Shown here: piece by piece, positions 23,829 to 46,817 of the stretch
How the letters are laid out: the number at the start of each line of letters is the position of its first letter
How positions within the stretch are numbered: the stretch's first letter is position 1
Assembly (NCBI GenBank): GCA_044892525.1
Contig: CM097887.1
Coordinates: 51,584,001-51,648,000, forward strand
Length of the DNA stretch: 64,000 bases
Direction of reading: 5' to 3'
From: Schmidtea polychroa
Taxonomy: Eukaryota
Position numbers and translations under genes: made by a program
The notes under the pieces: model-generated
The model's database searches: none
Told to the model about the DNA's origin: nothing
Seen by the model: only the letters and a program-made list of their open reading frames with translations

Positions 23829-24669
23829 TGTTGGGGTTAGAGCAAAAACAAAATAAATTTCACATGGTACCAGAAAGCAGAACAAAAATTGGTAAAATCA
23901 ATATAAGTACAAAATTAATTAAAATTTAATGAAAATTAAAAATCAATATTGAACGGGGGTATCGGGTATGGTTGAATGCCAAATTGTTAGACGAGGTTAG
24001 AAAGCATAATAAAAATGTAATAGGGTGATCATAGAAAAACTTAATAAGGAAAAACAAATTAATTAAAATTAATTAATCTGTAATGGAAAGCCCGAGCCAA
24101 TGGAAAGCCCGAGCCAATGGAAAGCCCGAGCCAATGGAAAGCCCGAGCCCATGGGAAACCCGAGCACTGAAGAAAACCCGATGCGCAGTGAGACCCGAGA
24201 CACCAGATAAGGTAATAATAGTTCGATTTATAATTTCAGGGTAAACAAATTAAAATAATTATCAAACCTTTCAATATTAACTTAGGGTGCCCGGGGAAAC
24301 AATTAATTTGAATTTGCTAGATAATTGGCCTCTTAGACACATTATAAAAGGAGAGCTTAGAAATGAGCAAGCCGCCATTTGGTCGAAGAGAAAAAGGAAA
24401 AAGCTAAACAGAAAATCCAGCAAGGACAAGTCAAAAGAGGAAATTTGTGAATTATAAAGAAGCTAGACTCGTACAAGAAAAGGTAATTGCCCCTTGGGTT
24501 CTATACCTTAACGAGACAAATTTGAATTGAGAAAAAGGTGCAAATAGTGACAAATTGTAATTGTGATAAAAATCAAATAAAGTTATTTTGTGTTGAGTTT
24601 CCATTGATTTGGTAAAATAAGAGCACGAGGAGTCAGAGAAAGGACCGACTTACAAATAAAAACTCAACA
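23829..24669 (+). repeat. 5' LTR (841 bp)
   Basis: Begins TGTTGGG and ends CTCAACA (terminal inverted repeat). The first ~340 bp are near-identical to 37727-38040. AATAAA at ~24577. Internal 17-bp tandem repeat. Confidence 0.95.
24082..24166 (+). repeat. 17-bp tandem repeat within the LTR (AATGGAAAGCCCGAGCC x4 plus one degenerate unit)
   Basis: Directly visible. The 3' LTR has only 2 units plus the degenerate one. Confidence 0.95.
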
Positions 24670-24672
24670 TTT

Positions 24673-24690
24673 TGGTGAGCCCGACGTGAT
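24673..24690 (+). promoter_or_regulatory. Primer-binding site complementary to tRNA-Trp
   Basis: TGGTGAGCCCGACGTGAT lies 3 nt after the LTR end. It differs by one base from TGGTGACCCCGACGTGAT, the complement of the vertebrate tRNA-Trp(CCA) 3' end. Confidence 0.88.
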
Positions 24691-25095
24691 CAAGTCGGCA
24701 GTGGATATTGTGGAAAAGTGAAAAGATAAAATTTAATATAATTGAAAGTTGAATATAATTGCCGAGATATAAAGTTGAAATTAAATTTGTTAAAGAGAAA
24801 TTAAATTGAAAAAGAAAAAAAAAGAGAAATTGAACAAATTGTGCAGTTGAAATAAAAGAGTGAAAGTTAACAAAATTTAAAAGATATTAAAATAAAGTTG
24901 TGGAAAAGTTTCAAAAATTTATAAAAACTATTATTGGAAATTAATTCAAAATTAAAACAAAAGGTAAAGTTAAAAATTGTAATTTTTTAAAATTTAGACG
25001 AGAAACAGTTGTCCAAGAGAAATTATACAATCTGAGAAGTAAAAAACACTTGGAAAATATGGACGAGCAACTCAAATATCAATGAACAAATCCCA

Positions 25096-25437
25096 GTGTC
25101 TACTACTCAAGCGAACAATGGAAATGATTATGCCAGTTGTCAAAAATTACCAGTTGAGCAATATGGAGGAGATCCAGTCGAATTTGTTGACTTTATGGCA
25201 GATTATTACATGTATGCTACAGCTTATGGATGGAGCCAAGCAACTATGGTACAACGCCTACCATTATATTTAAAAGGAGCTGCGCGAGAGGCTTGGCAAC
25301 AGATTGATAAACGACCTATAGCAAATGATTGGACAAGATTGAAAGATGCGTTGGCAGCCAAGTTGATCGGAGGAGATATAAAGAGAATGATGCGTAAAAG
25401 TTTTACAGTCGAGTGCAAAAGCCCGATGAATCTATAA
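25096..25437 (+). CDS. gag: Gag N-terminal/capsid segment; frameshifts into the next ORF at ~25395
   Basis: 'FVDFMADYYMYATAYGWS...LPLYLKGAAREAW...WTRLKDAL' is a retrotransposon capsid motif. Restoring one A in CGTAAAAG joins it to 'FYSRVQKPDESISEF'. Confidence 0.88.
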   Translation: MSTTQANNGNDYASCQKLPVEQYGGDPVEFVDFMADYYMYATAYGWSQATMVQRLPLYLKGAAREAWQQIDKRPIANDWTRLKDALAAKLIGGDIKRMMRKSFTVECKSPMNL

Positions 25438-27284
25438 GTGAGTTTGCTTATCATTTAACTACTCTTGCAGAGAAAGCGTTCGAAGTAAAGCCAGATCAAG
25501 AAGAAGTGGCAAAGCAAGTCAAAGAATTACTTCAGGACCAATTTTTGACAGGAGTCAAGAAAGAAATCAAAAAGGCTTTGTGTTTTGTTGATTTTACAAA
25601 TTTTGATGACTTGATTAGAAAAGCCATGAGAATTGAAATGAATCTTAAAACGACTCAGTCAAAGGCGGAATCATTTGCGATTATCAATGAGCCTAGAGAT
25701 AGATATATAACCCCAGTCAGCGATAACTTGCTTCAAAGATCAACCAGTCCATCTCCCAAGTTCAGAGTGAAATTTGAACCAAGAAAGTCAACAGACAGTC
25801 CAAATGAGGAAAGAGAAAGAACTCTTCAATGCAGTCATTGCCAGAGAATAGGTCATCACATAAATCAATGCTGGTTTAAAAATAACATTCGAAGAAGCCC
25901 TAGTCTGGTTCAGTGTGATTACTGTCAAAGAAAAGGACATAGCAATAGCCAATGTTGGTTCAAAAATAACGAACAACGTAGTCCAAAGGGAATGCGGTCA
26001 GAATGGTTGAAAAGTAATGGTGGTAAAAGTTTTAACAGAACGAATATCAGTAACCAGAGAACTAATGATAACATACAATGCTATAATTGTGGAAGGAAAG
26101 GACATGTCACTCGAAATTGTTTTGCAAGATCCAGATCTCCATCAACATCACCCTCACCGCAAAGAGACAGAGTTAACCTACAAGGCCAAATCCAATGTCA
26201 TTCCTGTAGAGGCTATGGACATATGGCTAGATCTTGTCCAAAGAGTAATAATATATTTCAAAGGCCGATATTAAAGAAGACGAGATTTCAGAAAGACAAA
26301 TCGCAATCTGACAATATAGCTTTTGCGCAAACAGATGATTTTAACGAGAGGATTGAAAATGAGATAAAGCAGATGAGTAGACGCTTGGATCGATTAATGT
26401 GCAAATTCGAATCTGACGAAGAATTGAGTAACCACATGATTTATGAGTCGCAATCAGAAGGATCAGAGACAGATTCTAAAGAGAAATTGGATAAAGAAGA
26501 CATAGAAAGAGAAAAAGTAACAATGATTATGCTGAGGATCAACAAATTTATTGAAGAGAGAGCAACAGAAACATCTAAAGTAATCTCATCGCTAAAGGAA
26601 TATAGTCAAATGACACTGAGCATACGAAAATTGAAAAATGAAATTGAGTTATGTGCCGATTATTATGATACAAATTTAAAAGACGAAAAGGAAATTGAAA
26701 ATGTGATGAAAATATTTGGAAAAACGTATCGAGAAAGTACATGGTTAGATTTTATGTTAATTAATGTTTTAGATGAAAAGGAGAAAGATGTAGCTTGCAT
26801 TCGGTGTGAAGTAGGAGATTGTGTAGAGGATTTAAAGAATAGATCAGAAGAAAATAATGGGAAACAGATAATAGAATTGAAGTTTAAAAATCGATGCTTA
26901 CGCAATGATGAGTTTTTAATTGATTGTGGTTTTATACCAGGAAATAAAAATAAAGTGGAGATAGCAAAAATGACAAGATGTTATGAAAATGTAAAAAGTG
27001 ATCTACAGAAAATTGTAAATGAGCTGAGAGAAGCTTTTGATGAGTGGAATAAAAATGCAATTGATGAAAAGTTGAAATTGGTAGAGGAAACGGAATTTGA
27101 CGAAAATAGTAAATTAGAAATTGTAAATGTAGTACGTCCATACATATATAAAAACTCGAAATATAAAGAAATATTAAAAGGTTTATTACGAAAATTTGGA
27201 AAAGAGATTAGAGAGACCAGGATAGAATTGAAACCATTTGTAATAGCATTAGATTATAAAAATGAAGGAAAACAGAGTATATAG
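25413..27284 (+). CDS. gag: Gag capsid C-terminus, four CCHC zinc knuckles and an uncharacterised helical extension
   Basis: 'QKPDESISEFAYHL...DQFLTGV'. Knuckles CSHCQRIGHHINQC, CDYCQRKGHSNSQC, CYNCGRKGHVTRNC and CHSCRGYGHMARSC (25830-26237). About 350 further aa follow with no recognised domain. Confidence 0.88.
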   Translation: MQKPDESISEFAYHLTTLAEKAFEVKPDQEEVAKQVKELLQDQFLTGVKKEIKKALCFVDFTNFDDLIRKAMRIEMNLKTTQSKAESFAIINEPRDRYITPVSDNLLQRSTSPSPKFRVKFEPRKSTDSPNEERERTLQCSHCQRIGHHINQCWFKNNIRRSPSLVQCDYCQRKGHSNSQCWFKNNEQRSPKGMRSEWLKSNGGKSFNRTNISNQRTNDNIQCYNCGRKGHVTRNCFARSRSPSTSPSPQRDRVNLQGQIQCHSCRGYGHMARSCPKSNNIFQRPILKKTRFQKDKSQSDNIAFAQTDDFNERIENEIKQMSRRLDRLMCKFESDEELSNHMIYESQSEGSETDSKEKLDKEDIEREKVTMIMLRINKFIEERATETSKVISSLKEYSQMTLSIRKLKNEIELCADYYDTNLKDEKEIENVMKIFGKTYRESTWLDFMLINVLDEKEKDVACIRCEVGDCVEDLKNRSEENNGKQIIELKFKNRCLRNDEFLIDCGFIPGNKNKVEIAKMTRCYENVKSDLQKIVNELREAFDEWNKNAIDEKLKLVEETEFDENSKLEIVNVVRPYIYKNSKYKEILKGLLRKFGKEIRETRIELKPFVIALDYKNEGKQSI

Positions 27285-27337
27285 AAGAACATTGGTGTAC
27301 CAAGGTTGGTAAATTACGAAAGAGAGCCGCTGAAAGA

Positions 27338-27856
27338 TTGGGAAAGGATGGAATTATTCAATTGATATTTAAAAGTGAAGAATTAGGTGACGATGAATAT
27401 TTATACGATTGTGGGTTTATACCTCAAGAATTAGATGAAGACGGATATTTATGTTCAGATACAGGATATTCAATAAATTGTGTAATAGTAATCAAAAATC
27501 AGATATCAAATAAAGTATATGAGTCCGACAGGTCAAATAATGAGATAGAAAGGGATGATGAAAATGAAAGAAGAGTTGAAAATGAAGGTGTACTAGATAA
27601 CAAGGACATAGGAACTAATGATAAAGATAAAAGTATAATAACAGAAGTATTAAAGGAAGGGCAAGTAACCAAAAGTGAAATGAATAGTGAAATAAAGACA
27701 AAAAAGCCTAGAACTTTGTATGAAATTAAAAAGAGCCGGGTGAAGTCAGAATTAGAAGTTGATGAGACAAAAAAGTTATTAAAGAATTTAGTTAAAATAG
27801 TATATCCAATGTTCGAAATAAAAGTGGATACAAGTGCGAATTGGGAGACACAGTGA
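27338..27856 (+). CDS. Accessory segment with the second 'DExLxDCGFIP' repeat; probably a frameshifted continuation of the gag ORF
   Basis: 'IIQLIFKSEELGDDEYLYDCGFIP' parallels 'IIELKFKNRCLRNDEFLIDCGFIP' at 26868-26939. Adding one A at ~27270 joins the two frames. Confidence 0.65.
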   Translation: MGKDGIIQLIFKSEELGDDEYLYDCGFIPQELDEDGYLCSDTGYSINCVIVIKNQISNKVYESDRSNNEIERDDENERRVENEGVLDNKDIGTNDKDKSIITEVLKEGQVTKSEMNSEIKTKKPRTLYEIKKSRVKSELEVDETKKLLKNLVKIVYPMFEIKVDTSANWETQ

Positions 27857-27884
27857 ATGGAATGGAAAAGAAACTTCCTAGTGT

Positions 27885-29627
27885 ATGCAGAGATTTGTTG
27901 AAAATGATGACTTTTGTAATAGAGGAGTCATGAAAACTTTGACGAAAAATGGAATTGATAAAGAAGTAGTACTAACAAGCTTAACATATGCAGTTTTAGA
28001 GATAGGAGCTCATAAGAAAATGGAATCAGATGAATTAGAGAATTTGATAGATGCAGCTGCTCGAGTTTTAAATGAATATTTAATGAATTGGATAAAAAGG
28101 AATGGAGGTTGGGTCAAAGTGGTAAAAGTGCTTACGATAAATAAAAATAACAAAATTAATATACCTCATAAATCGCTAAACGGGAGAGTTAGCTCAATAT
28201 TGAGAAAAACGATGGTATTTCCATGGGTAATGTTTATGATAATTGTTTTGTGCGCAATAATTACTCAGACAACCTGTATGACTGCATATGATTGTTCACA
28301 AACGGAAATGGGAAAAATTTATTCGGTAGTAGATATGTCAGAATGTTCGGATGTATACCCGAGAAAACTAAAGATTGAAAAAGATGTAAAATATCATGTA
28401 TATCAAGAATCTGATTTAAGACGAACGAAAGTTCGAGAATGTATAGTTAAACATACTACATTTATATTTTATTGTGGGAAGTGGAGCCATACTTCATTGA
28501 TAAAGATGTATACAATCCCAAGGCCAGTGGAAGTTATGCCAGAAAATTGTTTAGCAGCTTTTCAAACAGAAGAATTGAAAATAAGTTCGGAAATTAAACT
28601 GAAGGCAAAAATAAATCATAGGACGAGAGAAACGGTGGTTACGAAGGGATTAATGAAGCAAGACGGAGATTGTGAAGGGGAACCGTACAAAGTCAGTGGT
28701 AAGATTATTCAAAAAGCAGTGGTGATAGAAGAATATCTAACGGAATTGAGAGAATTTGAAGGAGCTTTTGATGATGATACGGGGAAGTTACAGACCCACC
28801 CATTTTGTAATATGAAACACAATAACTGTCAAACGGGGGAATCAATTCTTGTTTATGAAGTAAGAACTAATGTATGTAACTTAGCGCATTTAAAAACGAT
28901 GAATTTCAAAGAAATTAGTGGAGAGCAGTTTAGGGAAAGGCCTGACAATATTAATGTAAATTATGGAGTAAATATGACAATCAGATCAACGCCCGTTTGG
29001 ACAAGAAAAACAGCGACTGTATTAATGTCAATAATTCCGATGGACGCCATGCGTTTTATATTAAAGGAAGTTACCAATAAATGTGGTCAGACGGTATACT
29101 CCACAAATTACAAAGGAGTTTACGTATCAACAGTAATAGTACAGGAAGCTAAAACTAGAATTCATACGGGGGATATTAAATTAACCCACTATTTTAACAA
29201 TAAAATTGATTACTTATTTCATTATAGTCAGAACACCATGGACAATATCTATCGAGAAATGATCTTAAATAATTGTAAATTAAATAAAGAAATACTTCGA
29301 AATCGAATGGCAATGGCCATCACCAACCCAAATTTGGTTGCACCCATGTTAATGTCAGAAAATGGAGTGTTTGCGAGAATCTTCGGAGAAGCTTTATACA
29401 GTTATAAATGTAAGGAAGTGTCAGTAAAAATAATGAAATACGAAAAATGTACTAATGAATTGCCAGTTAGCGTCGATGGGAAGATACGATTTATGGAACC
29501 AATAACACGGATATTACTTGAAGAAAACATAAAACCAAAATTACTCCAGTGCAATAGATTGCTAGCCCCGTTATACCGTTTGGCACCAGATTCTTGGATA
29601 GCATTACCCGATCACCGGATAAGTTAG
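27885..29627 (+). CDS. env: Bcl-2-like domain, hydrophobic signal/TM segment and chuvirus-like envelope glycoprotein ectodomain
   Basis: aa 51-80 'LENLIDAAARVLNEYLMNWIKRNGGWVKVV' match helix 6/BH2 of the Bcl-2 family. aa 110-131 are hydrophobic. The ectodomain begins 'TAYDCS...YSVVDMSEC...ECIVKHTTFIFYCGKWSHTS...NC...KQDGDCEG', the cysteine pattern of chuvirus-type glycoproteins. Confidence 0.82.
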   Translation: MQRFVENDDFCNRGVMKTLTKNGIDKEVVLTSLTYAVLEIGAHKKMESDELENLIDAAARVLNEYLMNWIKRNGGWVKVVKVLTINKNNKINIPHKSLNGRVSSILRKTMVFPWVMFMIIVLCAIITQTTCMTAYDCSQTEMGKIYSVVDMSECSDVYPRKLKIEKDVKYHVYQESDLRRTKVRECIVKHTTFIFYCGKWSHTSLIKMYTIPRPVEVMPENCLAAFQTEELKISSEIKLKAKINHRTRETVVTKGLMKQDGDCEGEPYKVSGKIIQKAVVIEEYLTELREFEGAFDDDTGKLQTHPFCNMKHNNCQTGESILVYEVRTNVCNLAHLKTMNFKEISGEQFRERPDNINVNYGVNMTIRSTPVWTRKTATVLMSIIPMDAMRFILKEVTNKCGQTVYSTNYKGVYVSTVIVQEAKTRIHTGDIKLTHYFNNKIDYLFHYSQNTMDNIYREMILNNCKLNKEILRNRMAMAITNPNLVAPMLMSENGVFARIFGEALYSYKCKEVSVKIMKYEKCTNELPVSVDGKIRFMEPITRILLEENIKPKLLQCNRLLAPLYRLAPDSWIALPDHRIS

Positions 29628-29690
29628 AACTCCAGATAAATTGGAATTAATCATTTAGAATATTTAGTGAACTTTACATCCCTAAATTAA

Positions 29691-30206
29691 ATGGCACAAC
29701 TAGGTTTCTACGCAAGCGAGGATATAGAAGAAGCTCAAAGAAATTTATTATTTCCATCAAAGAAAGAACGGGTGATATCAGAAATGATTGATACAATATT
29801 ACCAAACGGAGAAAGTAAGGTTAATTATGAATATCTCCTAACGCCAGATCATTTCAAAAAAGCAACGTACAAAACGATGGAAAAGATTTGGGGAAAATTT
29901 ATGTTCTTAGGACAAGCGTGTGCTGGTTTGATTGGCATCTATGTGATCGTAGTAACAATAAAGGTGATACTATCTCAAATTTTATCTGCTCATAGAATAT
30001 ATATAATATCCGGATGGTCATGGAAAATAATTATTGGTTGTATTCCGTTTATAGCAAGATTTTTTATTAATCATCATCAATATAAAGAAATGGCGAATGT
30101 GAGAGCACAGAGAGCACTTTGTGTGAATCGAGGGACAGAAATAGTGGCAATAACAACAACAATGACAATGGCAGAAACGAGCAAATGTATTTTAGAAAAG
30201 AAATAA
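29691..30206 (+). CDS. env: Envelope glycoprotein C-terminal part with transmembrane segments
   Basis: Same frame as 27885-29627, after a short disrupted stretch. Hydrophobic 'FMFLGQACAGLIGIYVIVVTIKVILSQIL' and 'IYIISGWSWKIIIGCIPFIARFFI'. Confidence 0.75.
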   Translation: MAQLGFYASEDIEEAQRNLLFPSKKERVISEMIDTILPNGESKVNYEYLLTPDHFKKATYKTMEKIWGKFMFLGQACAGLIGIYVIVVTIKVILSQILSAHRIYIISGWSWKIIIGCIPFIARFFINHHQYKEMANVRAQRALCVNRGTEIVAITTTMTMAETSKCILEKK

Positions 30207-31873
30207 TGAAAAGCGAGGTAAAACCAGAGTCACGGTGCCTACTAGAACAGATGCCAAAACATAAAGGAATCGACACTCTCTCAAAATGGTATACACCGGT
30301 ATTCCTTCCAACAGCACCAGCATATCCAAGTGCAAGGCTAAAAGAAATGAAACCAGTAGAACATATTAAACGAGAAGCCGAAAAGATTGAACCAACAAGT
30401 GCTGAAATAGAACGGAAAAACATGCTCGGATTACCATGTAGTTATGCGTTGATGACAATAGGAAATAGAGGCAAACAACCTCGAACAAATATACTATTTA
30501 ACGAGAGAAAGGTCAAAGCCTTGTTAGATTCCGGTTCCAGTCATACTATAGTGTCAGATAAACTGTTGACAAGGGAAGAGAGAGCAAAGATGAAACCAAC
30601 GAATAAAATTATTAAATCAATGTCTCACAATGTACTGAATATAATCGGGAAGCTAGAAGTCAAATTAATTATTGGTAACCAAGAAATAACACATTATGTG
30701 TCAGTAATGAGTAAAAGCCCTGTTGAATGTCTAATTGGTATGGATGTTATGGAGCAACTGCGAGGAATTGCGCTGGATCTGACAACAGGAAAATTAATAA
30801 AGGGACAATTATATACAGTTGCAAATAAAGCAAGAGAAGTTGTTTTAAATCAAACGTTGGAAATACCAGCAAGAAGCGAAATAATATGTTATGCTAGTGT
30901 AGCAAACACGTCAGATGACGAATGTGTTTTCGAACCCAGTCGAAAACTAGTAGAGAAATACGAATTGCCAATGTGCGACGATATAGTACAAGTAAAAGAT
31001 CAGGCAGTGCCAGTGAGAATGGCTAATCTTAGCACAAAATCTATCCAAATGAAACCTAACAAGAAGTTAGGAAAGTTAATGAAATTTAAAACAGAACAAG
31101 CCCAAAAATTACCGAGAAACATTAAAATTTATAGAAAACCACAAGTGACGAGCAACGATTTGACAGAAGCACAAAAACAACAGTTTATGGCATTATTAAA
31201 AAGGTACAAAAGAGTGTTTGCAAAGCACGAGTATGATTTGGGACTTACCCAGGTGATCGAACATGAGATACCACTACTCGATGAAACTCCTATTAAATTA
31301 CGACCGTATAGAATCCCTTATATACATCAAGAGGAAAGTGATAGACAGATAAAAGCGATGAAAGAGTTTGACATAATAAGAGACAGTTCATCACCATTCT
31401 CATCCTCAATAGTAGTAGTCAAAAAGAAAGACGGTGATTTACGGTTTTGTGTGGATTATCGAAAATTGAATCAGGCTACAAGAAAAGACACCTACCCTTT
31501 GCTAGTTCCACAGGAAATGTTTGATCAAATGGGAGAAGTACAATTCTTCACAGTAATCGATTTGAATAAGGGATATAATCAATTTAAAGTAAAAGAAGAA
31601 GATAGAAGGAAAACGGCATTTTCAGACGGTAAAGGTTTGTACGAATTCAATGTGTTACCATTTGGCTTAACGGGAGCACCAGTGACGTTCCAGCGAGGTA
31701 TGAATTTTGTGTTAAGAGACATCCCACACGCACTAGTTTATATTGATGATATAATAATATTTTCGAATAACTTTCAGGAACATTTGGAAGATGTAGAAAC
31801 AGTATTCCAAAAATTGTTAAAGGCGAATTTAAAAATAAACCCTCAAAATGTGAGTGGGGGATATCTGAGGTAG
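30119..31873 (+). CDS. pol: Aspartic protease and reverse transcriptase (frameshift near the RT end)
   Basis: 'ALLDSGSSHTIVS' (PR, D at 30527). RT motifs 'LRFCVDYRKLN', 'IDLNKGYNQ', 'PFGLTGAPVTFQR' and 'YIDDIIIFS'. One A is missing in CCTCAAAATG (~31848). Confidence 0.95.
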   Translation: MCESRDRNSGNNNNNDNGRNEQMYFRKEIMKSEVKPESRCLLEQMPKHKGIDTLSKWYTPVFLPTAPAYPSARLKEMKPVEHIKREAEKIEPTSAEIERKNMLGLPCSYALMTIGNRGKQPRTNILFNERKVKALLDSGSSHTIVSDKLLTREERAKMKPTNKIIKSMSHNVLNIIGKLEVKLIIGNQEITHYVSVMSKSPVECLIGMDVMEQLRGIALDLTTGKLIKGQLYTVANKAREVVLNQTLEIPARSEIICYASVANTSDDECVFEPSRKLVEKYELPMCDDIVQVKDQAVPVRMANLSTKSIQMKPNKKLGKLMKFKTEQAQKLPRNIKIYRKPQVTSNDLTEAQKQQFMALLKRYKRVFAKHEYDLGLTQVIEHEIPLLDETPIKLRPYRIPYIHQEESDRQIKAMKEFDIIRDSSSPFSSSIVVVKKKDGDLRFCVDYRKLNQATRKDTYPLLVPQEMFDQMGEVQFFTVIDLNKGYNQFKVKEEDRRKTAFSDGKGLYEFNVLPFGLTGAPVTFQRGMNFVLRDIPHALVYIDDIIIFSNNFQEHLEDVETVFQKLLKANLKINPQNVSGGYLR

Positions 31874-32406
31874 TCTATGTTGGTCAAATTATATCCCGAA
31901 GTGGATTACAGCCAAACCCCGAAAATGTAGAAAAAATTAAAAATTATCCAATTCCAAAAAATGTAGATCATGTTAGACAATTTCTCGGATTAGCCAGTTA
32001 TTATAGAAAATTCATTAAACATTTTGCGCATGTAGCACAACCCTTGAACATATTATTAAAAAAGCAGACTCAATTTAAATGGACAAAAACACAACAGGAA
32101 GCGTTCGAATCGCTGAAAGAAAGTTTGATTAAAAAACCAATATTAAGATGTCCAAATTTTAAAATACCATTTATCCTAATGACAGATGCGAGCAATTTTG
32201 CGTTGGGCGCAGTGCTAGGACAACGGGTTGAAGGAGAAAGAGATCATGTCATCGCATATGCGAGTAAAACTTTGAAACCGCATGAAAAGAATTATTCTAC
32301 GATTGAAAAAGAAACGTTGGCATTAGTTAATGGAATAACTACATTTCAACAGTATTTAGTTGGAAGAAGATTTGTTGTCTTTACGGACCATAACCCTTTA
32401 CAATGA
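31850..32406 (+). CDS. pol: RT thumb/connection and RNase H; ends at a premature TGA (W codon) before integrase
   Basis: 'QFLGLASYYRKFI', 'LMTDASNFALGAVLGQ', 'NYSTIEKETLAL' and 'TDHNPLQ*LMKH'. In frame with ORF 32410. Confidence 0.92.
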
Positions 32407-32409
32407 CTT

Positions 32410-34596
32410 ATGAAGCATAGAGATTCAGCAAGTAAGTTGATTAGATGGTCAATTGCACTACAGGAATATGATTTTGAAATTAAATACCGTACGGGTAAAT
32501 CAAATGCAAATGCAGACACACTGTCGAGAATCCCTGAAGAAAATAATAATAATGATGAAAAAACGAACTATAATGATACAATATTTATGGTAATTAAATC
32601 AGCAAATAATATAAAGGAATTACAATATGATCAAGAAAATAATGAGGAACTAAATCAATTACGGAAAAATGCAGTAACAATTAAAAAGGAGAGTGATTGG
32701 AAACATATTGTTGAGGAAAAACATAAATATATTATCCACGAGGGTTTATTAAAATGTGTAAAAAATGAAAATTTACTAATTATAGTTCCAGCAAAACATC
32801 GAGAAACATTATTGTTGATTTACCACGATGGAGCACTAGGAGGGCATTTATCAGCTCGAAAAACATTATCAAGATTGAAATTGAAGTATTATTGGGAGAC
32901 AATGGAACAAGATGTCAAACAACGGTGCCATACTTGTAGAGTATGCTTGACAAGACGAAATACAGGAAGGAAAATAAAAGTTCCACTAAGACCTATGCCG
33001 GTGCCAGCAGCGCCAATGGAAATGACAGCAATGGACATTGTCGGTCCATTGCCGGAAACAATAAATGGCAATAAATATATTGTTGTATTTTGCGACTATC
33101 TAACTAAATGGCCAGAAGCATATGCCATGCAAAATCAAAAGGCAGAAACAGTTGCAAAAATTTTAGTAGAAAACATTATTTTCCGATATGGAGCACCAGA
33201 TAAATTACTTACAGATCAAGGAACGAATTTTCAAAGTGAATTATTTAGTTCGATATCGGAGCTATTTGGTATATTAAAACTTAGTACATCACCATATCAT
33301 CCACAAACAGATGGCCTAGTAGAAAGGTTTAACGGAACATTAATTAATATGATATCATCTCATGTGAATCGAAAACAAAGAGATTGGGATTTATTTATCA
33401 AACCATGTTTATTCGCATATCGAAATGCAGTTAATGAAAGCACTGGTGAAACACCCTTTTATCTTATGTATCTACGGCGAAATAATATGCCAATTGATTT
33501 GAAATTTCAAACACCTATATTGCAGTATATGGATACATCCGATTATAAAGTAATTATGCATGAGAGATTACAGTCAGTGTGGGCTCAAGCTGGTTTAAAA
33601 ATAAGACATAGCCAGGAAACGTATAAAAAATCCTACGACAGGAAAGCACATGCTCATAATATTAATATAGGAGATTTAGTCTATGTGAATAAACCAGAAC
33701 CAGAAAAGGGCTTGTCACCAAAGTTACAACGACCGTTTAAAGGACCGTATATTGTATGTGATACAACAGAAACCAACCTGAAATTACGTCCACAAAATAA
33801 TAAAAAGGCTGGGACAATTATAGTTCATGCTAATCGTTGTAAGAAAGTGCCGGCAATGGAGAGTGATAGATATCCGTTAACATCGAAAAAGAACAAATCA
33901 GTAGAAGAAAAAGTGGTCAAGCAAAAAGTTATTAAAAACCCAGTACCCTTAGGATATACCACTAAGGTCTTATTAATAACAACAATAATGCTACTAAATG
34001 TTTTGGGAACAAATGCAGGTCGATCTTTTCCAAAGTATGCAATAAAAAGGGTCCCATTATTGGAGAAAATTCATATATATTCAACATGTACCCAAATAGT
34101 ATGGTTTTATCTGCGTGGGTCAACGGAAGAAATAGAAATAAGTAATTTATTAAATCACTTTGACCCACCTGTAAAGTTGAATTTCAATAAAAATATTTTC
34201 GTGGCTCGTCAATTAACAATCAATTATGAATACCCTTGGCAAATAACAGAGTTACTATTTCAAAATAATAATACAAAAATTCGTAATATAATCCAAATTG
34301 AAATATTAACAAAAGATTTAAACAGTCTGGTTTCAATAGAACCAGTAGTGAATGGAATCGACGTATATTGGGAACCCCACGAATCCAAAAAAGTGAAATT
34401 AATCTTCCAAAATAATATTATCGATACATTAAACATCAGAAAACCCTTTGTCCATTATAATAATTTAAAATTAAATCAAACGTATGATATCGTTGTGCAA
34501 TATTATGAAAAGCTTTTGCGTGAAAATGGTACCGAAATCGATAACCAGTGGGTAAAAATTGATTCTATTCGACAATCCACAAAATTGGAAAATTAA
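32410..34596 (+). CDS. pol: Integrase (HHCC, DDE, GPY) fused in frame to a signal-like hydrophobic segment and an FN3-like ectodomain
   Basis: 'YHDGALGGHL...CHTCRVC', 'MDIVGP', 'TDQGTNF', 'VERFNGTL' and 'RPFKGPY'. Then 'VLLITTIMLLNVLGTNAG' (33967-34020) and 'GIDVYWEP...NNLKLNQTYDIVVQ'. Confidence 0.9.
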   Translation: MKHRDSASKLIRWSIALQEYDFEIKYRTGKSNANADTLSRIPEENNNNDEKTNYNDTIFMVIKSANNIKELQYDQENNEELNQLRKNAVTIKKESDWKHIVEEKHKYIIHEGLLKCVKNENLLIIVPAKHRETLLLIYHDGALGGHLSARKTLSRLKLKYYWETMEQDVKQRCHTCRVCLTRRNTGRKIKVPLRPMPVPAAPMEMTAMDIVGPLPETINGNKYIVVFCDYLTKWPEAYAMQNQKAETVAKILVENIIFRYGAPDKLLTDQGTNFQSELFSSISELFGILKLSTSPYHPQTDGLVERFNGTLINMISSHVNRKQRDWDLFIKPCLFAYRNAVNESTGETPFYLMYLRRNNMPIDLKFQTPILQYMDTSDYKVIMHERLQSVWAQAGLKIRHSQETYKKSYDRKAHAHNINIGDLVYVNKPEPEKGLSPKLQRPFKGPYIVCDTTETNLKLRPQNNKKAGTIIVHANRCKKVPAMESDRYPLTSKKNKSVEEKVVKQKVIKNPVPLGYTTKVLLITTIMLLNVLGTNAGRSFPKYAIKRVPLLEKIHIYSTCTQIVWFYLRGSTEEIEISNLLNHFDPPVKLNFNKNIFVARQLTINYEYPWQITELLFQNNNTKIRNIIQIEILTKDLNSLVSIEPVVNGIDVYWEPHESKKVKLIFQNNIIDTLNIRKPFVHYNNLKLNQTYDIVVQYYEKLLRENGTEIDNQWVKIDSIRQSTKLEN

Positions 34597-35178
34597 CCAA
34601 ATCGTATTATTTTACAATATAATAATCAAAAATGGATAGCCACACGACAAGCGATAACCAATAAAAAAGTGGAAATTTACTATTGCGGAAAACTGCAAGC
34701 TACATTGCAAGGTAATATTACATCTAAAATATTAATATTTCAGCAAATACGTTCAAAGTCAACTTCAAAAATTGTGATTGTAAAAATTAATTATTATCAA
34801 CGTGCTTTTCATCCCGATCAATGGAAAATCGTTCTAGTGGAAAGTAAATCTATTCGAGTACAATTTGACACAATTGAGGCTGAAAGCTCAAAATACATGT
34901 ACAATTCATCAACCAATGTGATTAATCAACTCATAAATGACATTAATTCTTCTTTTATTAATGGAAACCAAATTCCAAGAAACAAAACTACATTCTCATT
35001 ATCAAATGATTTTAAAAATACTTATGTTATTTTGTCATCTATCATCATCAGTGTGACACCATTTTCCATTATCATTCTTCTCACTCTACTGATTTACTTT
35101 CAAAGACTTAACAGACAATATGAATGTCAATCCAAGATCTCAAAACCTTGGATTGTCTACGAGGAAACATGGGTTTAG
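34597..35178 (+). CDS. C-terminal half of a type I membrane protein (ectodomain, TM, short tail ending ETWV); in frame with integrase after one TAA
   Basis: Same frame as 32410-34596 and open from 34597. TM 'VILSSIIISVTPFSIIILLTLLIYF' (~35026-35100). Tail 'KPWIVYEETWV*'. Confidence 0.72.
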   Translation, partial: PNRIILQYNNQKWIATRQAITNKKVEIYYCGKLQATLQGNITSKILIFQQIRSKSTSKIVIVKINYYQRAFHPDQWKIVLVESKSIRVQFDTIEAESSKYMYNSSTNVINQLINDINSSFINGNQIPRNKTTFSLSNDFKNTYVILSSIIISVTPFSIIILLTLLIYFQRLNRQYECQSKISKPWIVYEETWV

Positions 35179-35562: not shown

Positions 35563-36989
35563 ATGGAACAAATCCAATGGACAAGAGCAATTTATGACGG
35601 ATATTTGAAGATGCACCGCAACCACGTGAGACAAGATGCCATCGCCATCAATGACAACCGGAAAATACCAAACTACTTGAGGGTGGATGACAGAAAATGA
35701 AAACCCGAATTTTTAAAGTGAGCCGGAAATCGGTGAAAATAATAGAAGAAGATGAAATCAAGGATGGAAATGAGTACATGCTACACGTGATCAAAGGGAA
35801 AGTGGAGGTGATAGACGACGGACAAAAAGTCTTTTGGGAATTACACCAAGGATCATCGTGGAAACTGCAGAAAGAAACCTTGAGGAAGAAGTTGAGAGCA
35901 TCCAATGAAGATTCAAGAGTTGTTTTGGAAACACGAATCCCGAACGAGGAAAATGAAATTCCACAAACCACTTCAAAATTGCCAGATGATCCAACAATGC
36001 TTCCAATTACTACAGAAATGCTGAAAAGAAGATTGTCATTTATTCGAAGGGAAATGAGTCTGGAGGAGATACGGAACCAAATCGTGTTTATTGATGCAGA
36101 ATATGGAACATCAGAAAATAATAAAATGATTCCGTTGTCAATAGCGATGATGAGTTACGAAGGAAAAATAATTAAAAATTCATATTTGACACCAAGAGGA
36201 AGATTGCGTCATTTCAATTCCAGCATTCATGGTATCACAGAGATTGCCAGTAGAAACCAATGCGACCAGTATACGGAGATGCGAAAAGTTCAAAAACTAA
36301 CTGTTGGAAAAATTTTAATGGGACATGATCTTCATGCAGAATCGGAACATTTGAAAATCTGGACAAATCAATTGTACGGAATTAGGGATCTAGCAACAGC
36401 ACAGGCACTCCAACTGAAAGGAATAACAAGGAGAGGAGAATTCTTTTAACTCAAAACAGTGGTTGAAGAAATATTTGGAGAACAAACACAAACTGGTATT
36501 CACTCAGCATTGGAAGATGTCAAAAATGTACGGAGAGTGTACAGGAAAATTGAGAATTTATGGGAAGATGATGTAAAAATCCAGAAAATAGTCCCGTCAA
36601 AGAAATATTCTTTGGCAGAATATCAAAACCTTTATGCGGTGGACAAAGTACCAACAACGAGTGGAACATACTTCGAGATAGTTGAACAAGTCGATCTAAC
36701 AATTGAAGAACAAATGGAAATTGACGAAGCACCGTTGAAATGGGCAACTGAAGAATATTTGGATCCGATCAATGAAAGCCTCGAAATGATAATAAGTTTA
36801 TCTATTCACAGAATTCCGGCATCATTTGAACATGGGCCTATTCTTCATTTAGAGGATAGAAAAAGAAAATCAACAACAAAAATCGAAGCCAGCGAGTCCA
36901 TCATGGTGAATGGAATAGTCTATTATCGGGAGAAAACATATATCCGCTACAAGAGTGAGGCGGGAAAAATAGAATTGAAGATTGATTGA
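35563..36989 (+). pseudogene. 3' accessory ORF with an ISG20/REX4-like DEDDh 3'-5' exonuclease (ORFs 35697-36449 and 36459-36989, in frame, one TAA between them)
   Basis: ExoI 'IVFIDAEYG' (36081), 'YLTPRGRLRHFNSSIHGITE', ExoII-like 'KILMGHDLHAE', 'IRDLAT' and ExoIII '*LKTVVEEIFGEQTQTGIHSALEDV' (36501-36518). Probable frameshifted N-terminus from the ATG at 35563. Confidence 0.85.
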
Positions 36990-37726: not shown

Positions 37727-38040
37727 TGTTGGGGTTAGAGCAAAAACAAAATAAATTTCACATGGTATCAGAAAGCAGAACAAAAATTGGTAAAATCAAT
37801 ATAAGTACAAAATTAATTAAAATTTAATGAAAATTAAAAATCAATATTGAACGGGGGTATCGGGTATGGTTGAATGCCAAATTGTTAGACGAGGTTAGAA
37901 AGCATAATAAAAATGTAATAGGGTGATCATAGAAAAACTTAATAAGGAAAAACAAATTAATTAAAATTAATTAATCTGTAATGGAAAGCCCGAACCAATG
38001 GAAAGCCCGAGCCCATGGGAAACCCGAGCACTGAAGAAAA
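37727..38040 (+). repeat. 3' LTR, truncated after ~314 bp
   Basis: Near-identical to 23829-24176, apart from two substitutions I can see and two fewer 17-bp units. Identity stops abruptly at 38040. Confidence 0.92.
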
Positions 38041-40099: not shown

Positions 40100-41566
40100 C
40101 AGGGTTTTAAGTTGTATTTTGACAAGCATAATATATTTTTTGACAATATTAACCAGATAATAAACAATATTAAATCTATTATTGACAATATATACTAAAT
40201 TAATAACAAAAAAAGCTTTATTAATGACATTATAAATATATTTTTAGACATTCTATGCATGGCTCGACAAATAAATCAATTTCCTGCTTCCATAGCAAAT
40301 AATACAGAAATAGTAGTCGAAAGTGATAACACTGCCGAACCAGCTATCCGTAACACTTTTCGAGTACAACGAAGAAATAATACAATTTCAAATGCTGATA
40401 GAGATCGTGTTATTACAGCATACGATGACGGGACTTCAATAGTTGATATTTCTCGAATTTTATCAATAAAAAGAACTACAATTTATGGTATTTTGAAGAA
40501 GTACCATAACACTGGAGTGGTGGAAGCTGATAAGAGAGGCGGCGATCATCCACTAAAATTGACAGAGGATCAAAAAAATCAAGTAAAAGAGTGGGTTGAT
40601 AATAACTGCCAATTATCGTTGAAAGTTTTAGCGGAAAAGGTATTTACAGAGTTTCAAATTAGAATATCCACAACTTATGTATATAATTTATTATCTCGTT
40701 TTCATTATTCAATGAAAAGACTTCATTTAATTCCAGAGAGAAGAAATTCAACAGAAGTAATTGAAACCAGAAAAGAATATGCACTTAAATTCTCTTCTAT
40801 ACTAAGTATATATTCAGAACAAGAATTAATATTTATTGATGAGGTGGGATTCAACGTTTCTATGAGAACAACAAGAGGAAGATCACAAATAGGCACTCCT
40901 GCAACATTAAATGTACCGACCATACGATCAAGAAATATATCTATAGCATGTGCAATGAACAAAAATGGGTTATTGTTTTATAAATCTTTTAATCGGGCCC
41001 TCAATAAAGAGAAGTTTATCGAATATATAACAGAGCTAAAGGAAGTTTTAATTGATAAAGAGATTCACAGATGCGTAATCATAATGGATAATGTTAAGTT
41101 CCATAAAAGTCCTGAAGTGCTTAGCGCTATAAATAATGAAAATACAACTGTAAAATTTCTTCCGCCGTACTCAACTTTTCTCAATCCTATTGAGAACATG
41201 TTCAGCAAGTGGAAGGAAATCACCAAAAGAACCAACACCAGAAATGAAGATGATCTTATGCGAGCAATTGAAAATGGAAGTACCCTAATATCTTCACAAG
41301 ACTGTAGTAATTATGTGCGAAATATGTGGTCATATATACCAAGATGTATTGAGGGAGAAATTATTCTTAATTAAATGTCACTTAATTTTTTTGTCATTAC
41401 ATTTTTTGTAATATATTACATTAATATATGTATTATTGTCATTTATATTATTTAAATTGGCATTTATTTTATTAATATTGTCATTAATGTATTTAACATT
41501 GTCAAAGATTATATTAAAATATTCAAAAAATATGTTATGTTTGTCATAATACGACTTGAAACCCTG
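40100..41566 (+). mobile_element. Tc1/IS630-like DNA transposon, full length
   Basis: 44-bp TIRs (CAGGGTTT...) with 5 mismatches, TA on both sides and repeated TGACAA/TTGTCA subterminal motifs. Confidence 0.92.
40259..41374 (+). CDS. DD34E transposase, intact 371 aa ORF
   Basis: HTH 'TSIVDISRILSIKRTTIYGILKKY', 'FIDEVGF' and 'IIMDNVKFH...FLPPYSTFLNPIEN'. I count 34 residues between the second D and E. Confidence 0.93.
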   Translation: MARQINQFPASIANNTEIVVESDNTAEPAIRNTFRVQRRNNTISNADRDRVITAYDDGTSIVDISRILSIKRTTIYGILKKYHNTGVVEADKRGGDHPLKLTEDQKNQVKEWVDNNCQLSLKVLAEKVFTEFQIRISTTYVYNLLSRFHYSMKRLHLIPERRNSTEVIETRKEYALKFSSILSIYSEQELIFIDEVGFNVSMRTTRGRSQIGTPATLNVPTIRSRNISIACAMNKNGLLFYKSFNRALNKEKFIEYITELKEVLIDKEIHRCVIIMDNVKFHKSPEVLSAINNENTTVKFLPPYSTFLNPIENMFSKWKEITKRTNTRNEDDLMRAIENGSTLISSQDCSNYVRNMWSYIPRCIEGEIILN

Positions 41567-44549: not shown

Positions 44550-46817
44550 CACCTATCCCCCGATTTACACGGTACTTGTTTTACACGTTTTCGCTTTTAC
44601 ACGGTTTTTCAAATAAGTTTTTTTTTGTTTTTATCGCACTCTACTAAATGCTACTGTGTTAGAACACGTGCGCTGTGTACACATCTCACGGGGAATCCCT
44701 AGCTTATGTGCTGACTTGCTGCACATGCACACTGTGTCTGTATTTCTTCGCATAAAATTAAAGTTTTAAAGTTTAAAGTGAGTGCATAATTTAGATTACA
44801 TATTATAAATTAACATAAATTAAAAACAATTATAGGCTTATAATGTCGAAAGAAGTTAAAAGAAAAGTTATTTCTTTAGAAACTAAAATCGAAATTTTGG
44901 ATCGCTTACGAAAGGGAGGTAGAGTAGTAGATGTTGCAAAATCATATAGCATGAACGAAGCTACAATAAGAACTATTAGAACAAATGAAAACACAATTAG
45001 AAAGAGTGTTGCAGCTGGCAATACCACGAGTATGGGCACAACATCATACACCAGAAATATCGCAATGGAAAAAATGGAGAAAGCGTTAATGCTTTGGATA
45101 GTACCCCTTGATACGGCCGCTAAAACAAATAAAGCAGTACGAATTTACGAAAAAATTGTAGAGCAATTCCCATCTTCTTCTTCAACTGAAAAGAAGCCAA
45201 ATTTTTTGGCAAGTCATGGCTGGTTCAAAAGATTTAAAATAAGACATTCTTTACACAGCTTAACATTAAAAGGTGAACTGGCTTCTGGCGACGTAGATGC
45301 AGCCCAAGAATATCCAGCAAATTTTGGAGAAATTATTAACGACAATTCATACACCTCTGATCAGCTTTTCAATGCTGATGAGTCAGGGTTATTCTGGAAA
45401 AAAATGCCTGAAAGGACTTATGTCTCAAAATTTCATAAATCGGCTAGTGGTCATAAAGCAGCAAAAGATCGCATAACAATTCTTTTCTGTAGCAATGCTT
45501 CAGGAGATTATATTATGAAACCATTAGTGATTAACAAATCAAAAGTGCCCCGTGCCTTTAAAGGAGTAAACATCAAAAATCTTCCCGTTTATTGGAGGGC
45601 TAATAAGAAAGCGTGGGTTACTGCTGCAATGTTGACTGAATGGTCTCATGAATGTTTTATCCCAGATGCCAAAAAATATTTAGGTTCAAAGGGATTGCCT
45701 TTTAAAGTGCTTTTGTTAATTGACAATGCGCCGGGTCACCCACAAGATCTAGAATATGAGAACTTTGAAGTAAAATTTTTACCAAAAAATAAAACTTCAT
45801 TATTACAACCATTGGACCAAGGCATAATTTCTACTTTTAAAGCTTTGTACATAAAACGAGCCTTTACATATATTTTGGAACAAATGGAGAAAAATGAATC
45901 TTTAACAGTTATTAGTGCTTGGAAAAATTTTACAATAATAGACTGTGTGAAGCATATCGCCTTATCATACACTGCGATTAAGCAAACAACGCTCAATAGC
46001 TGTTGAAAAAATTGTGGCCAAATGTAGTCAAAAATGAACATTCCATTTCAACGTTAAATGATGAATATTCGCAGATAGTACAGATGGCGCATTCATTGGA
46101 CGGAGAAGGTTTTGATGATTTTACTGATGATGATATCGCAGAGTTAATGGCTGATAAAGAACTAAGTGAGGATGATTTAGTTAACTTAGTTTGCGAAAGT
46201 GAGTCTGAAAAATCTGATGAAGAGGAATTAGTACCAGTAACATTCACTGCTAAAGTCATCCGCGAAGGACTCGCATTGGGGAGAAAGCTGGGTAATCATT
46301 TTATACAAAATGACACAAACGTAGAAAGGGCTTTACGATTCCAACGTGACATAAATCGCTGCTTGGCTCAATAAGAAGAAGTTTACAAAGATCTTACAAA
46401 AAATTCGAAGCAATTGTTAATAACCGATTTTATTACCACCTCTCAGAATGTAAATATTTCTGCTTCAAACATCGAATCGGCACAAATAACTTCGAGTGAT
46501 GAAAATGAATTCCAACCTTCGATTCCGAAAAAAAGAATGAGAGTAATTTCTGATAGTGATGAAGGATAATAAAACACCTTTGGTTTTATTTTTTGTTCTT
46601 CTGTTTAATGTATTGTAATTAAATAAAAAAACAGTGTTTCCGTAATATATTACATATTTTAACCTGTCAATGCATTTTATTTTTATTTCTGTGTACTCCT
46701 AAAAATATTGAAAAAAATCACAACTGTTAAATAGCAAAATTATGCATTTTCTGCAAGCTTTTCGATTTACACGGTTTTCTCAGGAACGTATCTACCGTGT
46801 AAATCGGGGGATAGGTG
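44550..46817 (+). mobile_element. Tigger/pogo-family DNA transposon nested in the Buster element
   Basis: Perfect 23-bp TIRs CACCTATCCCCCGATTTACACGG. TA TSD. Confidence 0.94.
44843..46571 (+). pseudogene. Tigger-like (CENP-B HTH plus DDE_1) transposase, disrupted
   Basis: 'KRKVISLETKIEILDRL', 'ASHGWFKRFK', 'FNADESGLFWKKMP', 'LLIDNAPGHP' and 'LQPLDQGII'. There is a 1-bp deletion at ~46005 (C-W-K-K-L-W-P) and a premature TAA at 46372. Confidence 0.9.

Follow-up and report, generated by a model that had tools for sequence, protein, structure and literature searches.

The planarian retroelement Burro, also called GYPSM1, is reportedly owed to Jurka 2007 and Grohme et al. 2018. As set out in the Burro section of PMC6431247, Burro comprises giant gypsy-like LTR elements of planarians (>30 kb, 4,873 aa), in which one ORF carries Gag, a Ubi2/SUMO-like domain, a BCL2-like motif, an Env related to mononegavirus fusion proteins, and protease-RT-RNase H-integrase. 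The in-frame BCL2-Env-protease layout is thus not new, and that section makes no mention of BH1 loss, a signal sequence, or topology. A continuous gag-env-pro-pol ORF is likewise ascribed to nematode endogenous retroviruses in the part of PMC13524379 that cites Sacco et al. 2022. Divergent Bcl-2 folds are also found in poxviruses: according to PMC4358236 and PMC11209288, A49, A52, B14, and K7 bind no BH3, and M11, F1, and N1 do. Vaccinia A49 keeps the fold, leaves BH3 unbound, and blocks NF-kB instead (PMC4358236).

The 64,000-nucleotide stretch of DNA analyzed here (the window) contains one copy of a multi-copy Ty3/gypsy element with the one-frame order Gag-Ubl-Bcl2-Env-Pol (Table 1). Its assignment is based on the LTRs, the PR-RT-RH-IN order, and a gB-type Env in frame between Gag and protease; a nematode (NERV) identity, first guessed from gene order, was dropped after Env matched planarian elements. 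Of 3,128 candidates for the 5' LTR in the genome, 40 were scored, and 39 of them were matches elsewhere at 90-95%. The primer-binding-site-like stretch presumably resembles a tRNA-Trp 3' end. In sister copies, uninterrupted frames of 3,419 and 3,437 codons pass through the Bcl-2-like domain, and its N- and C-terminal halves share a frame in 22 of 30 loci. Sister copies also gave E 1.6e-87 for Env against PF24664 and E 1.2e-7 for the accessory ORF against ISG20L2 (7yw5). For the ubiquitin/SUMO-like repeats, every score was below cut-off: sister family 2 gave E 0.007 and P0003 E 0.03 against Pfam ubiquitin, and family 3 gave E 0.12 against Rad60-SLD. Like the C-terminal extension of the window's polyprotein, the C-terminal part of P0015 bears two hydrophobic segments.

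Table 1 Features of the element in the window, with positions in window coordinates
Feature	Position	Strand	Basis or remark
5' LTR, 841 bp	23829..24669	+	first 303 bases = 37727-38029 at 98.4%
Primer-binding-site-like stretch	24673..24689	+	begins TGG, 3 nt past LTR
gag: Retrotrans_gag region and four CCHC zinc knuckles (25830-26237)	25036..26740	+	Pfam PF03732, PF00098
Two weak ubiquitin/SUMO-like repeats, motif cores 26868-26933 and 27353-27418	26750..27430	+	shared motif
Acidic low-constraint linker	27494..27688	+	22% identity, dN/dS 0.80, families 1 vs 2
Bcl-2-like domain, N-terminal half; amphipathic helices, putative helix 1-3 equivalents	27689..27884	+	
Bcl-2-like domain, C-terminal half; BH1 equivalent IDKEV 27954-27968, core helices 5-6, BH2 28089-28112	27885..28130	+	
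FCNRGVMKTL	27912-27941	+	frame 27882-29627
IDKEVVL	27954-27974	+	frame 27882-29627
LIDAAARV	28044-28067	+	frame 27882-29627
WIKRNGGW (BH2)	28089-28112	+	frame 27882-29627
Internal Env signal sequence: basic n-region, h-region 28212-28262	28203..28277	+	predicted signal-peptidase cut 28277/28278
Env, gB-type/Monjiviricetes fusion glycoprotein	28278..30100	+	PF24664 E 1.7e-58 and 1.2e-20
pol: protease 30473-30763, RT 31418-31846, RNase H 32080-32379, integrase 32785-33303	30473..33303	+	Pfam
Polyprotein C-terminal extension, two more hydrophobic segments	33950..35178	+	ORF translations; in-frame stop at 34594
Accessory ORF, ISG20-like 3'-5' exonuclease	35691..36989	+	in-frame stop at 36447
3' LTR, ends early at ~314 bases	37727..38040	+	purine tract immediately upstream

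Judged by its sequence, the copy in the window is defective and should not yield the protein. In addition to the stops in Table 1, its frame breaks near 25062 and 25395 in gag, near 27270 in the ubiquitin/SUMO-like region, and near 29617 and 29653 in Env, whose C-terminal membrane helix lies at ~29916-29972, while pol has a deletion near 30111-30119, a frame break near 31837, and an in-frame stop at 32404. Relative to sister copies, one-base frame breaks near 27832 and 27884 fall inside the Bcl-2-like domain itself. Contigs from four runs (three studies) span the region and, in agreement with the family form, lack the three local gaps of the window, a comparison that leaves these gaps as either private mutations or assembly errors. 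The expression look-up listed no RNA record bearing the sequence.

All strings quoted in the initial annotation lie in the plus-strand frame 27882-29627, and the Bcl-2-like domain proposed there is borne out: sequence comparison identifies it almost certainly as a Bcl-2 homologue. Pfam PF00452 matched the window's domain with E 5.3e-5, although the score of 24.1 bits is under the gathering cut-off of 31.4 bits; a sister copy scored 26.6 bits, one family-3 copy 32.2, and P0001 31.4, and 16 of 19 aligned rows matched at E<=0.1. With a host-only Bcl-2 profile, the sister-copy domain reached 38.5 bits versus a shuffle maximum of 10.6 (0/1,000 shuffles as good), and a PDB search with a profile built from the retroelement copies alone placed Bcl-xL at the top (E 1e-8). 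Homology is significant across BH1-BH2, the C-terminal half to which the hhalign profile-profile match is confined. The N-terminal half forms helices of computed amphipathicity; BH4/BH3-bearing helices 1-2, if present, would lie outside the hhalign coverage, and in sister copies the Pfam alignment extends into this half to PF00452 profile positions 1-5. Upstream helices had been suggested for the frameshifted 27750-27885 region, where the N-terminal half does lie, but the domain starts earlier, at ~27689. Burro rows had no PF00452 match at all and scored 11.4 bits on the host profile versus a shuffle maximum of 9.7. ESM Atlas leads were all below 0.9; those of family 1 pointed to clusters of the Bcl-2 clan and those of family 3 to unrelated clusters of bacteria. 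Chance resemblance or an inert relic could account for the sub-cut-off score and for the designed helical repeats that stood above Bcl-2 in a single-sequence PDB search, which we discarded as composition matches. However, such an origin is largely refuted by the profile, shuffle, and PDB results and by dN/dS values far under 1 next to a linker that evolves almost neutrally, and is very improbable.

A retroelement-profile search of 1.84 billion representatives returned seven matches, namely five retroelement-like proteins (two of them, P0001 and P0007, without context), one cellular Bcl-2 (P0004), and one repeat artefact (P0005), which was dropped. When the Bcl2+Env alignment was searched against 5.8 billion proteins, two were found among 7,913 candidates; the domain occurred within longer proteins in 0 of 1,095 candidates of a 5.8-billion-protein search, which is weak evidence. 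The sole cellular match, P0004, which we take to be Bax-like, also lacks WG in BH1, as would suit a Bax-like membrane-permeabilizing module that aids particle exit from the cell or ER. Such a role is nevertheless most unlikely, as the N-terminal half shows no conspicuous BH3-type motif and a constitutive fused pore former would harm the cells on which the element depends.

Comparing the two BH motifs, BH2 is intact as annotated. WIKRNGGW is identical in 30/30 fetched loci and IDKEVVL in 27/30, counts that are biased upward because these loci are the best 30 matches to the query. Across families, the pattern W-x(4-5)-GGW is kept, with GGW in 17 of 19 rows and QGW and GGL in the remaining two. 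The replacement of the BH1 NWGR by DKEV also holds, since DKEV pairs column by column with the NWGR of Bcl-2 exons from host genes of the same genome. The BH1 Trp is present in 0/19 rows and the Gly in 1/19; the Gly position is occupied by Asp/Glu in 16/19 rows and by Asn in 2/19, and the window's family has K, E, and V in place of W, G, and R. Any one of W144A, G145E, and R146A is enough to abolish Bax binding in human Bcl-2 (PMC6825947, entries of its Table 1), and mouse Boo, with SWSQ, bound no pro-apoptotic partner (PMC5691656). By analogy with these mutants, with Boo, and with A49, the loss of the BH1 Trp/Gly would favor a non-classical function. BH1 is altered in the cellular proteins P0004, L044, and L110 as well, so the change may be older than the capture of the domain.

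These substitutions bear directly on whether the domain could be a functional anti-apoptotic viral-type Bcl-2, in line with the vBcl-2 of the initial annotation, with a rebuilt M11/F1-like groove sequestering host Bak/Bax/Bok at the ER or after protease release. BH2 and the helix-5 aromatic residue are retained in nearly all rows, Arg/Lys occupies the BH1 Arg position in 10/19, and the BH3 peptide binding of M11 and F1, divergent in sequence as they are (PMC4358236 and PMC11209288), offers a precedent. Related Burro1 guards planarian stem cells from apoptosis via its IAP part, according to the passage of PMC13465017 citing Lee et al. 2026. The ORFs of the window's element and of its two sister families yielded no BIR, so the domain would be their only known anti-death cargo. 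We consider this function possible but rather doubtful, because the window's family has replaced all three BH1 residues, where each such change alone ends Bax binding in Bcl-2, and because the anchor is a cleaved ER signal instead of a mitochondrial tail.

Comparison across copies indicates purifying selection on the domain. dN/dS was 0.09-0.35 in five within-family pairs, with every bootstrap range below 1, and between families 1 and 2, for which dS is close to saturation, it was 0.11 in the N-terminal half and 0.25 in the C-terminal half versus 0.80 in the adjacent linker. Every env-bearing family examined (7/7), the giant Burro type among them, carries the domain, always directly before the Env signal, with RT identity down to 52%. 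In the tree, a 98/98 branch sets the 13 retroelement rows apart from the rest, and the sequences point to an apparent single shared origin. No host row fell inside or clearly beside the retroelement clade; the best host exon on the retroelement profile was L042/L114 (35.8 bits, among nine stretches scanned), and no donor was identified among those nine stretches and the tree rows. A host pair of two-Ubl and Bcl-2-like genes was not found as a candidate donor, the ubiquitin search giving at least 150 strong matches.

The fixed position in 7/7 families, the 1:1 ratio with Gag by construction, and steady purifying selection while functional BH1 residues were lost could also describe a structural part of the particle with its signaling role gone, a matrix-like helical module by which the Gag precursor would be kept at the ER membrane carrying Env and capsid assembly linked to Env. 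This is unlikely: P0008/P0015, the one Gag-Env-Pol relative of non-planarian type retrieved, has no Bcl-2-like domain, implying that the layout works without it, and conservation between families 1 and 2 is 57% in the domain, versus 76% in the Gag core and 82% in Env. We give a similarly small chance to a broader proposal, that all gypsy families of planarians with a gB-type envelope owe their Bcl-2 fold to a single ancient capture, after which it lost its death-regulating groove and became a matrix-like virion module, linking the entire Gag precursor to the ER by way of the Env signal remnant. If true, a Bcl-2 fold would be in use as a structural particle protein.

The topology differs from that first proposed. 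Rather than being fused to the env leader, the domain is the final cytosolic module of the Gag half in the continuous Gag-to-Pol frame of sister copies. The hydrophobic segment placed about 27 aa past BH2 is present but starts 33 codons after the last BH2 Trp. The PF24664 match starts at this segment in P0002, P0003, and P0006, and the (-3,-1) rule is obeyed at the predicted cut in 13/13 rows versus 0-7/13 at six neighboring sites. These rows include a Gag-Env relative without Bcl-2, and the segment is thus Env's ancestral signal. Of the dual role suggested for it, the signal sequence stands and the captured Bcl-2 tail does not; the domain lacks a C-terminal tail anchor of its own, and the Env signal segment could serve as an anchor after the cut. 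As the domain lies within a continuous frame, cleavage would leave a membrane-anchored product, as had been claimed, but one consisting of a ~1,070-residue Gag-Ubl-Bcl2 precursor and not a free vBcl-2; the further cut needed to free it was not located. The strict stoichiometry with Env holds at 1:1 and is equally true of Gag and Pol. Overall, Gag-Ubl-Bcl2 is very probably anchored to the ER by the Env signal remnant, on the cytosolic face.

Our tentative preference, held somewhat short of an even chance, is that the captured, divergent Bcl-2-like domain is an ER-tethered scaffold that tunes host survival or stress signaling via a remodeled surface and not by classical NWGR-type BH3 capture. 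Gag, the two Ubl-like repeats, and the Bcl-2-like domain would be made in the cytosol, after which the first hydrophobic segment would start the ER import of Env and be cut at its luminal end. The Env C-terminal helix would then halt transfer and put PR-RT-IN back in the cytosol, while the signal remnant would anchor Gag-Ubl-Bcl2 until the element's protease perhaps frees the domain, a likely protein-binding scaffold on the cytosolic face of the ER. Counting against the scaffold are the Pfam score under cut-off, the half-domain hhalign match, the weak Burro rows, BH3 binding by M11/F1, and the Arg/Lys in 10/19 rows.

The window's element resembles Burro in carrying Ubl (only weak here) and BCL2-like modules between Gag and Env, and a Burro-type copy in the same genome (L075-L076) shares its Bcl2-signal-Env junction, and the Bcl-2-like domains of the two group together. 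However, that copy carries MATH, BIR, and ankyrin, whereas neither these nor dUTPase were detected in the ORFs of the window's element and two sister families. The window's element has an exonuclease ORF instead, and its RT is only 53% identical to that of Burro. Measuring ~14.2 kb between the start of its 5' LTR and the truncated 3' LTR, with ~13 kb internal and a sister ORF of 3,419 codons, it is not Burro proper (>25 kb internal, with MATH, BIR, and ankyrin). The initial annotation had called the arrangement rare for a retroelement, which is true across retroelements, but it was already published for planarian Burro (PMC6431247). Four points had no mention in the literature searched, outside of which lie Grohme 2018 and Lee 2026: the domain is common to compact families and giant Burro, it is apparently of one origin, its BH1 Trp/Gly are lost throughout, and the conserved signal-peptidase site would leave Gag ER-anchored through it. 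As the Burro1 IAP part is reported to protect stem cells, it becomes a testable question, accessible in a model animal, whether a second host-derived death-pathway module of planarian elements protects likewise or became structural.

Smed_errantivirus_1 (PMC13524379) shares the gene order and Env type of the window's element, and 81 of the first 100 Env residues are identical by an eye count; at ~19% Env divergence it is a relative and not the same element. 'Bcl-2' has 0 matches in the text of that paper and 'Bcl' 0 in seven supplementary files. Like the nematode endogenous retroviruses, as described in the part of PMC13524379 noted above, the window's element has Env in frame between gag and pol. 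Finally, by analogy, the poxviral proteins A49, A52, B14, K7, M11, F1, and N1 are cases of a selfish replicator keeping a host Bcl-2 fold whose BH motifs have degenerated. Those, however, are stand-alone genes of DNA viruses, whereas the domain described here is a module of a Gag-Env-Pol polyprotein with a recognizable BH2.

The Bcl-2-like domain sits within an LTR retroelement of an AT-rich host genome of 781 Mb. Pfam matches follow the order gag with zinc knuckles, PF24664 fusion glycoprotein, protease, reverse transcriptase (RT), RNase H, and integrase, and the Env is a Monjiviricetes-type fusion glycoprotein (PF24664, E 1.7e-58). The element is a Ty3/gypsy retroelement with env placed between gag and pol. 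Scoring 150 of 1,426 candidates from a genome search gave at least 48 full-length matches at 89–100% (the window counted), at least about 89 matches at 55–58%, and at least 13 partial or intermediate matches. While the window copy is broken, its family is intact, and several sister copies have open frames of 3,419–3,437 codons. Because the frame from the whole domain into the start of Env is open in sister copies (22 of 30 fetched loci in our own test), the domain can be delimited as the final cytosolic module in the Gag half, preceded by two weak ubiquitin-like repeats and then an acidic linker.

Positions of features in the window and at related loci of the same genome
Feature	Position	Remark
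LTR-like fragments	8437-8633; 63562-63998	
5' LTR	23829-24669	
Frame breaks relative to an open sister copy	near 25062, 25395, 27270, 27832, 27884, 29617, 29653, 30111-30119, 31837	
Bcl-2-like domain	~27689 to 28130	
PF00452 match	27882-28280	
h-region of hydrophobic segment	28212-28262	17 residues
In-frame stops	32404, 34594, 36447	
Extension past integrase	33950-35178	hydrophobic segment, about 350 residues, final membrane helix
Accessory 3' ORF	35691-36989; L062:1106-2563	ISG20/ISG20L2-like exonuclease, E 1.2e-7
3' LTR	start 37727, abrupt end ~38040	98.4% identity to 5' LTR over 303 bases
IS630/Tc1-like transposase ORF	40199-41374	name assigned by eye
Tigger-like ORF	44819-46374	name assigned by eye
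Decayed second gypsy element	57712-59780	
Two copies of the window's family (L061-L062)	G000:C3:53.22-53.24 Mb	head to tail, 13.5 kb apart
Canonical NWGR Bcl-2 exon copies (L031-L037)	G000:C4:89.9-90.8 Mb	seven, near-identical, within 0.9 Mb
Tandem near-ubiquitin frames (examples)	G000:C1:15640804, C1:18609205, C2:81673564	
TRAF-like ORF, then BIR-RING ORF, in a Burro-type copy	L076:6853-9608	zf-TRAF + MATH; 392 aa

The polyprotein runs on past the integrase, and this extension is possibly a second surface protein; the C-terminal end of P0015, a Gag-Env-Pol relative, likewise bears two hydrophobic segments. Pfam returned no match for the accessory 3' ORF. Elsewhere in the genome, long open frames, some reaching about 1,400 codons, occur at many scattered sites and hold two tandem near-ubiquitin units, which suggests another mobile family, one with di-ubiquitin.

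The strings quoted in the initial annotation are all present in the window, and the feature is real, but its interpretation was right only in part. PF00452 does match the domain (E 5.3e-5), but at 24.1 bits it falls below the cut-off of 31.4 bits. A PDB search with the single sequence gave a weak result: designed repeats ranked first, and Bcl-2 proteins followed at E 0.03 and above. When profiles of retroelement sequences only were searched against PDB, Bcl-2-family chains alone were found among the 60 matches listed (including fusions and the schistosome protein 3qbr, which carried no family name); the top match was Bcl-xL, at E 2.5e-7 and 1.1e-8. Four retroelement domains scored 38.5, 48.4, 25.0, and 11.4 bits on a seven-sequence cellular Bcl-2 profile, and for each, 0 of 1,000 shuffles reached the observed score. 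Profile-profile comparison gave probabilities of 94.7% and 95.8%, limited to BH1-BH2. ESM Atlas leads were all below 0.9; for family 1 they pointed to the Bcl-2 clan, for family 3 to unrelated clusters. Although this last outcome counts against homology, the three stronger tests (retroelement profiles, shuffles, and profile-profile comparison) agree in pointing to it.

The replacement of NWGR at BH1 was confirmed. Among 19 BH1 rows, which include near-copies, Trp is present at the NWGR columns in none; the Gly position is taken by Asp or Glu in 16, by Asn in two, and by Gly itself in one, and the Arg column holds Arg or Lys in ten and Val or Met in nine, the window's family among the latter. 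Some cellular proteins (P0004, L044, and L110) have an altered BH1 as well. In human Bcl-2, any one of the substitutions W144A, G145E, and R146A is enough to abolish Bax binding (PMC6825947, Table 1). Mouse Boo, with SWSQ at BH1, binds no pro-apoptotic partner (PMC5691656). Vaccinia A49 has a Bcl-2 fold without BH3 binding, whereas M11, F1, and N1 bind BH3 despite their divergence (PMC4358236 and PMC11209288). Taken with these mutant, Boo, and poxviral precedents, the BH1 changes argue against a classical groove and would still be compatible with a rebuilt one. True BH3 capture through such a rebuilt groove seems unlikely.

The hydrophobic segment after the domain opens with a basic n-region, continues as the h-region, and closes with a short c-region of polar residues. 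In 13 of 13 rows, a cut placed three residues ahead of the Tyr/Phe in Env's first xDC motif fits the established (-3,-1) small-residue rule for signal-peptidase cuts (Asn being accepted at -3 in one), compared with 0–7 of 13 for the six neighbouring sites. Because the PF24664 match begins at this segment and P0008/P0015, a relative without the Bcl-2-like domain, has the same segment and site, the segment is predicted to be Env's own internal signal. Under standard topology rules, cleavage would leave Gag-Ubl-Ubl-Bcl2, about 1,070 residues long, anchored at the cytosolic face of the ER, with Env on the luminal side; Pol would be brought back to the cytosol by the second helix of Env. The predicted cut and topology thus make the suggested double use of the segment, as signal and anchor, plausible. 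However, the product would be this long Gag-Ubl-Ubl-Bcl2 chain and not the free membrane-anchored vBcl-2 proposed initially, and the strict 1:1 ratio with Env would be equally true of Gag and Pol. Our leading, tentative reading is an ER-tethered Bcl-2-fold scaffold whose remodelled surface would influence signalling in host survival or stress. A matrix-like structural role is doubtful, and a pore former is highly improbable.

The domain is under constraint, though the core genes are more strongly constrained. Pairwise NG86 dN/dS between families 1 and 2 is 0.11 in its N-half and 0.25 in its BH1-BH2 half, at a near-saturated domain dS of 1.2–2.7, compared with 0.80 in the adjacent linker, 0.07 in Env, 0.07 in the Gag core, and 0.01 in RT; identity is 57% in the domain, 76% in the Gag core, 82% in Env, and 94% in RT. 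Five less divergent pairs gave 0.35, 0.34, 0.15, 0.19, and 0.09, with every bootstrap range below 1, so that dN/dS across copies, a comparison already envisaged by the initial annotation, is well below 1 in all pairs (0.09–0.35). That the domain is a relic or a chance match we hold to be very improbable.

The domain lies directly ahead of the Env signal in seven of seven env-bearing families examined in this genome (L061, L063, L098, L106, L105, L065, and the Burro-type L075), drawn from the best candidates of genome searches, so further families may exist; in the five whose RT was compared, identity is as low as 52%. Public assemblies hold five further such domains (P0001, P0002, P0003, P0006, and P0007), the Env junction being visible in three. 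In a 25-row tree, which is unrooted, has long branches, and includes P rows recruited by a retroelement profile, a branch with 98/98 support sets all 13 retroelement rows off from the Bcl-2 rows of the host and of Mavericks. Because of these features of the tree, a single capture is graded as likely and not more firmly. The phylogeny thus separates the domain from host Bcl-2 but gave no donor gene, either in the tree or among host stretches scored on the retroelement profile.

Maverick/Polinton-like DNA elements of the same genome bear a Bcl-2 gene of their own (L088, L089, and L093, alike at 98.8–99.7% over 7.5–8.4 kb; L090, L091, and L092). The gene comes in an intron-split type and an intronless type; the latter encodes 152 aa, scores above the Pfam cut-off, and shares 42% identity with host exon L042. 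Both types adjoin a TBP-like ORF and are accompanied by genes for pPolB or integrase and ATPase. Bcl2 in adintoviruses has already been published (PMC8502044).

Six Schmidtea GAG-ENV-POL elements are catalogued in PMC13524379, among them Smed_errantivirus_1, whose Env shares 81 of 100 residues with that of the window (counted by eye); the paper makes no mention of Bcl-2. This Env similarity, together with the Burro-type elements of the genome, points to a dugesiid planarian as the probable host. Burro-type elements occur in the same genome as the window, where BIR has at least 150 matches (150 of 309 candidates scored), and the anti-apoptotic effect of Burro1 has been ascribed to its BIR-RING part (PMC13465017). 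Burro itself is described as having a single ORF that encodes Gag, MATH, a Ubi2/SUMO-like domain, BCL-2, Env, and protease, its Env being akin to mononegavirus fusion proteins and its BCL2-like motif attributed to Grohme et al. 2018 (PMC6431247). With BCL-2 before Env in a single ORF, Burro has the layout of the window's family, and the window's domain is a further case of this layout already in print.
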